Below, in pieces: positions 39,146 through 39,229 of a stretch of DNA of 64,000 nucleotides. The notes beneath the pieces are model-generated. The model made no database searches and was not told the origin of the DNA. It worked only from the letters and a program-made list of their open reading frames with translations. Origin of the DNA: Octopus vulgaris. Lineage: Eukaryota. The number at the start of each line of letters is the position of its first letter. Position 1 is the first letter of the stretch. The stretch covers positions 90,768,001-90,832,000 of the forward strand of contig OX597824.1 of assembly GCA_951406725.2 (NCBI GenBank), given 5' to 3'. Both the position numbers and the translations under genes were made by a program.

Positions 39146-39229
39146 TCGGCTGACGAGTACGAGCCACCTATATTTACTGCAATTTTTGTAGCTTATTAAA
39201 GATGTCCTCGTACGAAACAATTGTACCGA
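39146..39229 (+). ncRNA. Type I hammerhead ribozyme, intact core
   Basis: TCGG-CTGACGA-GTACGAG-(43 nt)-CTCGTAC-GAA-ACAATTGT-A-CCGA: helix I TCGG/CCGA, perfect 7-bp helix II, palindromic helix III, GUA cleavage triplet ending at 39225. Confidence 0.85.

Follow-up and report, generated by a model that had tools for sequence, protein, structure and literature searches.

The window analyzed here is a stretch of 64,000 nucleotides from Octopus vulgaris. It contains a homeobox coding exon at 61777-62061 (+), coding exon 2 of Prop (prophet of Pit-1 / unc-42-like), and a type I hammerhead sequence at 39146-39229 (+), which has the same sense as the homeobox gene, as the initial annotation had proposed. 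The hammerhead is carried by a 271-bp module at 39111-39381 (+), earlier delimited as about 270 bp between (TA)n repeats. The module is bordered on the left by (TA)42 at 39028-39111 and on the right by (TA)n at 39381-39600, the two parts of its microsatellite target. Downstream of the hammerhead, positions 39230-39262 (+) complete a pLTR up to the short terminus of the repeat family, about 37 nt past the predicted cut, and a 119-nt tail at 39263-39381 (+) ends at the long terminus of the family. Judged from its sequence and that of its relatives, the module is the 5'-truncated 3' end (pLTR and tail) of a young Penelope-like retrotransposon of the Hydra clade.

Both the sequence and a structure descriptor assign 39146-39229 (+) to the type I hammerheads, with an intact core. 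The 5' strand of helix I (TCGG, 39146-39149 (+)) is followed by the catalytic core CUGACGA (CTGACGA in the DNA, 39150-39156 (+), from C3 to A9, with G5 at 39152) and by the 5' strand of helix II (GTACGAG, 39157-39163 (+)). Loop II is replaced by a 43-nt insert (39164-39206 (+)) containing an inner hairpin at 39177-39191, after which come the 3' strand of helix II (CTCGTAC, 39207-39213 (+)), a segment at 39214-39225 (+) with the core GAA (39214-39216), the palindromic helix III ACAATTGT (39217-39224) and A17, and the 3' strand of helix I (CCGA, 39226-39229 (+)). The core elements CUGANGA, GAAA and UH are present in type I order together with three helices. Helix I has 4 bp, identified from the sequence, the descriptor and compensatory changes in sister families, and helix II, identified by the descriptor, has 7 Watson-Crick pairs with G10.1-C11.1. 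The GUA triplet occupies 39223-39225, with the predicted cut 3' of 39225. The intact core, the perfect GTACGAG/CTCGTAC helix II, the palindrome and the GUA site had all been read correctly beforehand. The description of the motif as the best preserved is valid within the window, where it alone of three hammerhead-like remnants passes the strict descriptor, but not within its own family.

A DNA search of the octopus's own genome (2.8 Gb) with the module returned 2311 first-look candidates. Among the 40 candidates scored, the 39 other than the module itself match near full length with 96-98% identity. In the 29 relatives that were fetched, the right end is fixed and is followed by (TA)n, and the left side runs on into shared upstream sequence to a varying extent, in many cases reaching an inverted copy. 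The intact-core pattern gave 447 exact matches genome-wide compared with none for the reversed control, and the tail pattern gave 333; both numbers are lower bounds, and the 447 include both arms of inverted insertions. The window copy is about 1% diverged from other copies of the family, which argues for a recent insertion. Set against the majority state of its 29 closest relatives, it carries three differences in 271 nt, two of them private and one a minor variant, and it has C at 39167, where 26 of the 29 closest copies have T. With a rate of 0.0036 per million years (PMC13282606), its age is estimated at roughly 2-3 million years, with a wide error. No second copy of the family that could serve as a dimer partner was found in the window.

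Inverted pieces adjoining the module encode a reverse transcriptase (RT) with the motif LYRDD and a GIY-YIG-like domain. When loci were fetched with the endonuclease protein, 28 of 30 had the module 0.86-1.26 kb downstream in the same orientation. Of the remaining two, L042 runs into an assembly gap (seen as L061) and L038 has the module at a greater distance (seen as L067). Open full-length frames for RT and endonuclease, of 1090 and 1091 codons, were identified in L061 (4172-7441) and L062 (1900-5172), both starting directly after module position 266. Since the ORF starts right after the tail, the tail is the 5' UTR of the element, and the module comprises the pLTR and this tail. The complete element is about 4.7 kb with a protein of 1072 aa, and is composed of a 5' pLTR, the tail, the RT and GIY-YIG ORF, a 3' UTR of about 1.3 kb and a second pLTR. 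A single RT and GIY-YIG ORF linked to the module, pLTRs in partial tandem, 5' truncation, inverted 5' copies and a tail at one end are the features of endonuclease-bearing (EN+) Penelope-like elements (PLEs).

The published diagnostic set for Hydra elements comprises RW(K/R), DKT, CxCx5C, CxxC and CxH, with neither GxKF/Y nor CCHH (PMC8557442). In the L062 protein, which also contains LYRDD, we identified RWR at 37, DKT at 124, CNCRIKSKC at 932 (CxCx5C), CQLC at 1029 (CxxC) and CIH at 1060 (CxH). G-x-K/R-F/Y and the internal CCHH cysteines are absent from it, a single Cys lies between the GIY- and YIG-like words, and the endonuclease is C-terminal (residues ~950-1070). Insertion into (TA)n and a canonical hammerhead likewise agree with Hydra. 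The length of about 4.7 kb departs from the usual size below 3 kb, which is a general trait rather than a diagnostic motif, and is explained by two long low-complexity inserts rich in Asn (which makes up 27% of residues 490-930) and the long 3' UTR. The clade call is based on these motifs and on likeness by eye to the published Hydra alignment rather than on a tree. Assignment to Naiad, prompted by LYRDD and the (TA)n targets, was ruled out by the C-terminal endonuclease; the N-terminal endonuclease, the DKA motif and the lack of a canonical hammerhead that mark Naiad do not apply here. A Pfam search with the full element protein found no RT domain, and the GIY-YIG match was below threshold (E 0.0015). 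The nearest database proteins are mostly unnamed and 35-42% identical over the RT half, and one named protein from Octopus sinensis covers 42% of it with 66% identity. Sister families have open frames of 941-984 codons. No description of this octopus PLE family was found in a literature search in which few subscription journals were covered.

The same hammerhead was identified in 16 of 20 sister-family loci, in which the endonuclease is 72-85% identical. Twelve of these loci were aligned with the window copy and L062 (n=14, with four close relatives of included rows omitted), and 94.6% of the cells pair, compared with 33-54% in slid controls. Seven of the 25 pairs, three of them in helix I, change on both sides, a number reached in 0 of 500 shuffles; as the 14 rows are related, these changes are not independent events and the shuffle count is not a probability. 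The core bases are fixed except for position 7 and the 10.1 region of one copy, and helix I shifts from TCGG/CCGA to TTAG/CTAA via G-U intermediates. In the first 100 listed of the 447 core matches, the centre of helix III is GATC in 67, AATT in 28, GATT in 4 and AATC in 1 (hand count). GATC and AATT are both palindromic; the change from one to the other amounts to the decay of two CpGs and is weaker evidence for selection. Two aligned copies with AACT break the palindrome. These alignments indicate that selection acts on the fold of the ribozyme within the element's lineage.

Copies of the family stop at one of two fixed 3' termini, about 37 nt or about 156 nt past the predicted cut, and sister families do likewise (35-45 and 151-162 nt). 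Among head-to-head insertions with distinct sequence, 38 of 39 pair one short with one tailed end; nine of the 39 come from the tail-selected set, and L170/L171 are one duplicated insertion. In the sets unselected for the tail the rule was followed by 26 of 26 (16 from the twin pattern, six from the core pattern and four from the endonuclease search), and the single exception is among three pairs of large loci. Neither the strictness of this rule nor the 119-nt tail was found in print by the literature search, with its few subscription journals. The census included 30 tail-to-ORF junctions, all covered by 29 loci. Full-length elements were observed with the tailed end (L204, L209, L210, L211 and L215) as well as with the short end (L198, L202, L212, L219, L062, L141, L142, L144 and L150). 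Had all elements with a 5' pLTR ended at the short site, the tailed long copies would have called for a circular or tandem RNA. As full-length elements carry both end types, linear templates suffice, and circular ones, though possible, are not required.

For the window copy, the element's endonuclease would have nicked the (TA)n, and reverse transcription would have started from the tail site and covered 271 nt before it ended. Both start sites are 3' of the cut, so copies with a whole hammerhead, including this one, would derive from RNA that had stayed uncut or been re-ligated there. For the ribozyme of the parent element, the likely active form is a dimer of two pLTR copies joined by the helix III palindrome, and cleavage of this dimer, possibly aided by the element protein, would process the element's own RNA. 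The Prop pre-mRNA would offer no such partner nearby. Some further junctions are worth recording. L170/L171, L173 and L175 have the same inverted junction on different contigs, with arms from module positions 95 and 109, as would result either from re-mobilisation of a non-autonomous fold-back unit or from repeated template switching at a single microhomology. The helix III palindrome is also the centre of L161 and L167, which are themselves near-perfect palindromes. In L001, L008, L020, L022, L086, L090 and the window copy, the 5' breakpoints lie near module position 1 (~-8 to +7), which is possibly a transcription start or pause site. In addition, L213/L214 (G000:C22 ~45.4178-45.4190 Mb) and L205/L206 are short non-coding arrays, both tandem and inverted, in which the pLTR, the tail and the opening bases of the ORF are repeated and complete hammerheads follow one another at about 380 nt; they may represent a retrozyme-like derivative.

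A possible footprint of cleavage was observed among the insertion breakpoints. Four genome matches start at the first post-cut base and are preceded there by a base that is not A; the partner arm of each also terminates no more than 3 nt from the cut. Close twin junctions were enumerated at 17 places, corresponding to 16 insertions with breakpoints set by hand, and in five of the twin junctions both arms end at module positions 114-119; three of these five are the same places as the post-cut starts preceded by a non-A base. Control counts were 2, 0, 0 and 0 in four upstream 6-nt windows and 1 in a half-covered downstream window. With a background of 0.75 the Poisson tail for the excess is 0.001. 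Short insertions may, however, simply be more frequent close to the priming site: among the 30 tail-selected loci one twin ends at ~128/139, which suggests a background near 2.4 and a tail probability of 0.10. No end at 114-119 was seen in these 30 loci, and two junctions fall on the centre of the palindrome, where fold-back alone could act. The weak cluster of breakpoints at the predicted cut is thus only suggestive of cleavage. We tentatively put forward, as a rather unlikely scenario, that head-to-head insertions might be built by two cDNAs, primed 119 nt apart, one at each end of a (TA)n break, from two RNAs dimerised by the palindrome, a minority of which would be cut by the ribozyme in the germ line so that both arms stop at the cut. 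If true, this would be genomic evidence for in vivo cleavage by a PLE hammerhead and for a role of the hammerhead as the linkage of an RNA dimer.

The homeobox exon at 61777-62061 shows 99% identity to the Prop/unc-42-like protein of Octopus bimaculoides. Prop exon 1 was not found within the window by peptide words, and a splice-pattern search of the window for this exon gave one match at chance level only. The back-translated N-terminus of the O. bimaculoides homolog (MQTLAKAHSG) has one match in the genome, at G000:C11:90677223-90677249, which is 90.7 kb left of the window and is followed by a GT donor. Exons 1 and 2 join in frame to a homolog-like sequence, across an intron of 152,529 nt that begins outside the window at G000:C11:90677248 and ends at 61776. 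RNA-like contigs from three studies (X1, X9 and X12; that the runs are RNA is a guess) align from 61772 and leave the genome at the 5' edge of the exon, as splicing would require, with 263, 134 and 510 further letters that lie elsewhere; the five contig letters that overlap before exon 2 equal the end of exon 1. The gene model and these contigs indicate that the hammerhead, with the donor 130 kb upstream and the acceptor 22.5 kb downstream, likely lies in intron 1 of Prop in the sense orientation, with further exons between possible. The suggestion that it would be intronic if Prop starts upstream is thereby supported.

Other repeats lie in the window as well. A second hammerhead motif at 59928-59980, antisense to Prop, lies in a stub of about 290 bp (59690-59985 (-)) of another family, for which 3482 candidates with 92-96% identity were identified. 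This family has (TA)n ends, inverted partial copies and two termini about 83-90 nt apart, one of 20 loci has a related endonuclease upstream (35% identity), and helix III of the hammerhead at 59928-59980 is not a perfect palindrome. At 20412-20491 (-) lies a third hammerhead-like motif, a decayed remnant whose helix II has a long insert; by eye it is similar to an intact motif of L151 (2126-2214, minus) in which helix II has 12 bp, and it probably belongs to a third family. Two antisense hammerhead remnants of other families in the same intron are what chance accumulation predicts. L151 also has compact hammerhead-like motifs at 5369-5413 and 5726-5770, 357 nt apart in direct orientation and with U at core position 3. 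Two adjacent open stretches of 219 and 199 aa at 5118-6374 (-) have the look of the C-terminal region of a non-LTR retrotransposon, including a CCHC finger and a restriction-like endonuclease. Within the window, 34928-35298 and 62100-62480 are tandem units of very high copy number, which we take to be SINE-like and which dominate the RNA-like contigs at the Prop exon.

The activity of the window copy was considered by equilibrium folding, which ignores co-transcriptional folding, tertiary contacts and help from proteins and is a guide only. In the isolated 84-mer, helix I has a probability of 0.59-0.90 and helix II of 0.95-1.0, and helix III of the monomer reaches 0.02-0.03 with 2 bp only, so that a stable monomeric helix III is not predicted. 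The hammerhead fold (-14.4 kcal/mol) is 2.3 kcal/mol above the minimum (-16.7), and the 8-bp intermolecular palindrome duplex has -6.4 kcal/mol. With natural flanks the probability of helix II falls to 0.04-0.09 (0.09 with 39/37-nt flanks), whereas in copies that carry T at 39167 the group means are 0.94-1.00; the C at this position gives a weaker helix II extension. Helix I probabilities are low in most family copies with flanks (group means 0.00-0.24). The construct proposed for in vitro transcription, 39130-39250, is predicted to fold with neither helix I nor helix II, and a negative cleavage result with it would say little. The window copy is thus predicted to cleave poorly, if at all, as a lone copy.

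That the hammerhead is a real motif, and not a string assembled by chance in AT-rich DNA, is confirmed by several observations. The strict descriptor matched once in the window and in none of 300 block-wise Markov-1 resamples. The failure of an Rfam scan of the whole window to give any match at gathering score would fit a chance origin, as would a folding energy of the 84-nt region that is unremarkable (z -1.58, 17 of 200 shuffles equally good) and inferior to that of its minus strand (z -2.43). The Rfam result is likely due to the 43-nt insert in helix II, and the 447 genomic matches against none for the reversed control, together with the compensatory changes, refute chance assembly, the probability of which is negligible. 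An alternative origin of the module is that it is a monomer of a non-LTR retrozyme, copied via a small circular RNA. Retrozyme monomers are about 170-400 nt long, and the size of the module, its type I hammerhead and its lack of an ORF are in line with this. Retrozymes are, however, tandem non-coding units with a hammerhead, and apart from the L213/L214 array no tandem repeats of the module were found in the window or at the loci examined; its left end is a point of truncation beyond which relatives continue into the 3' UTR and ORF, and the ends of the unit are not tied to the cut site. The retrozyme interpretation is largely refuted by these observations and must be regarded as extremely improbable. 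We are confident that the hammerhead is part of the pLTR of a Hydra-clade PLE, that the stub likely arose by target-primed reverse transcription into (TA)n in what is likely intron 1 of Prop, and that it is a predicted passenger with little cleavage as a lone copy.

Whether such a passenger could have been co-opted by the host, cutting the Prop pre-mRNA co-transcriptionally and thereby lowering or timing Prop output, was weighed against the same data. The sense orientation in the likely first intron of a neural homeobox gene, where the other two remnants are antisense, the intact core bases and the formation of helices I and II by the isolated 84-mer would suit this role. Compared with its 29 closest copies, however, this one has only three differences in 271 nt, so that its intactness reflects youth and not selection by the host. 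The copy is one among 447 intact-core matches, has no dimer partner in the window and is predicted to misfold in its context, and in two of the three runs (X1 and X9) RNA-like contigs extend uncut across the cut site of a family copy, an observation specific neither to this locus nor to this copy. None of the three runs covers the start of the ORF, which counts neither for nor against. The implied role in Prop is also unneeded, as the end of a high-copy Penelope-like element explains the motif. Co-option is therefore very unlikely, and a host role for this hammerhead is unsupported. The proposal that the Prop pre-mRNA carries a self-cleaving RNA is doubtful in view of the lone stub, the dimer-type helix III and the misfold predicted in its own flanks. 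A weaker alternative to passive carriage, which we also regard as unlikely, is modest cleavage as a monomer or in trans with other transcripts of the family, neutral as the flanking exons would still be spliced. The hammerhead fold of the monomer lies only 2.3 kcal/mol above the minimum, and family pLTR sequence in the RNA-like runs could supply a partner in trans; but the monomeric helix III has 2 bp at a probability of 0.02-0.03, published minimal hammerheads are without monomer activity, and the RNA status of the runs is a guess. The preferred reading remains that of a predicted passenger.

Hammerheads in Penelope-like elements, including a Hydra element of Octopus, are already known, and an intronic position is to be expected in a 152-kb intron of a repeat-rich genome. 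In Xenopus, 42-44% of the copies of non-LTR retrozymes overlap introns (bioRxiv 10.64898/2026.07.22.740005), so that an intronic position is common. Those retrozymes share with the window module a type I hammerhead of PLE origin, but they are tandem non-coding units, whereas the module is single and comes from the truncated end of a coding element (bioRxiv 10.64898/2026.07.22.740005). A close structural parallel in the ribozyme itself is with the minimal hammerheads (min-HHRs) in the pLTRs of metazoan PLEs, which have a helix II of 7-8 bp, a helix I of 4-5 bp and a palindromic helix III, and show no cleavage as monomers and low cleavage as dimers (Cervera and De la Peña 2014, PMC4209133). The window copy is likewise type I, with a 7-bp helix II, a helix I that has 4 bp here and 6 bp in most relatives, G10.1-C11.1 and a palindromic helix III suited to dimers, and its family likewise occurs mostly as single dispersed motifs from truncated elements (PMC4209133).

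With the Hydra clade as published (Craig et al. 2021, PMC8557442), the octopus family shares an RT followed by GIY-YIG in one ORF, the Hydra motifs, (TA)n targets and a tail at one end. Its type I hammerhead is likewise located close to the 3' end, with a helix III that is short and near-palindromic, and 5' truncation and inverted 5' copies are common to both. Hydra-1_Obim from Octopus bimaculoides has a canonical hammerhead and a length of 2507 bp, within the range of Hydra elements, which are generally below 3 kb (PMC8557442). The octopus family differs from Hydra-1_Obim in its hammerhead sequence, in its size (~4.7 kb and 1072 aa as against 2507 bp) and in having open full-length frames (PMC8557442). 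In addition, its loop II of 43 nt compares with 3-10 nt in the Hydra hammerheads of File S2, and its tail of 119 nt with 30-40 bp for PLEs (PMC8557442). A young family with open frames and a well-paired ribozyme containing an unusual 43-nt insert offers a practical system for the function of PLE hammerheads. The ribozyme of the Poseidon element PAc from Anolis carolinensis required protein for cleavage and was not needed for insertion in vitro (Frangieh et al. 2024, PMC11167929). As in PAc, where two RT start sites define the tail, two fixed termini lie downstream of the hammerhead, the targets are AT-rich and the hammerhead is copied intact (PMC11167929). PAc belongs to another clade, and its hammerhead overlaps the start of the ORF with the RT start sites inside the ORF, whereas in the octopus family both termini are upstream of the ATG and 119 nt apart (PMC11167929). 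Given the strict pairing of one short with one tailed end and the long tail, two-site priming would be easy to score in the octopus genome.
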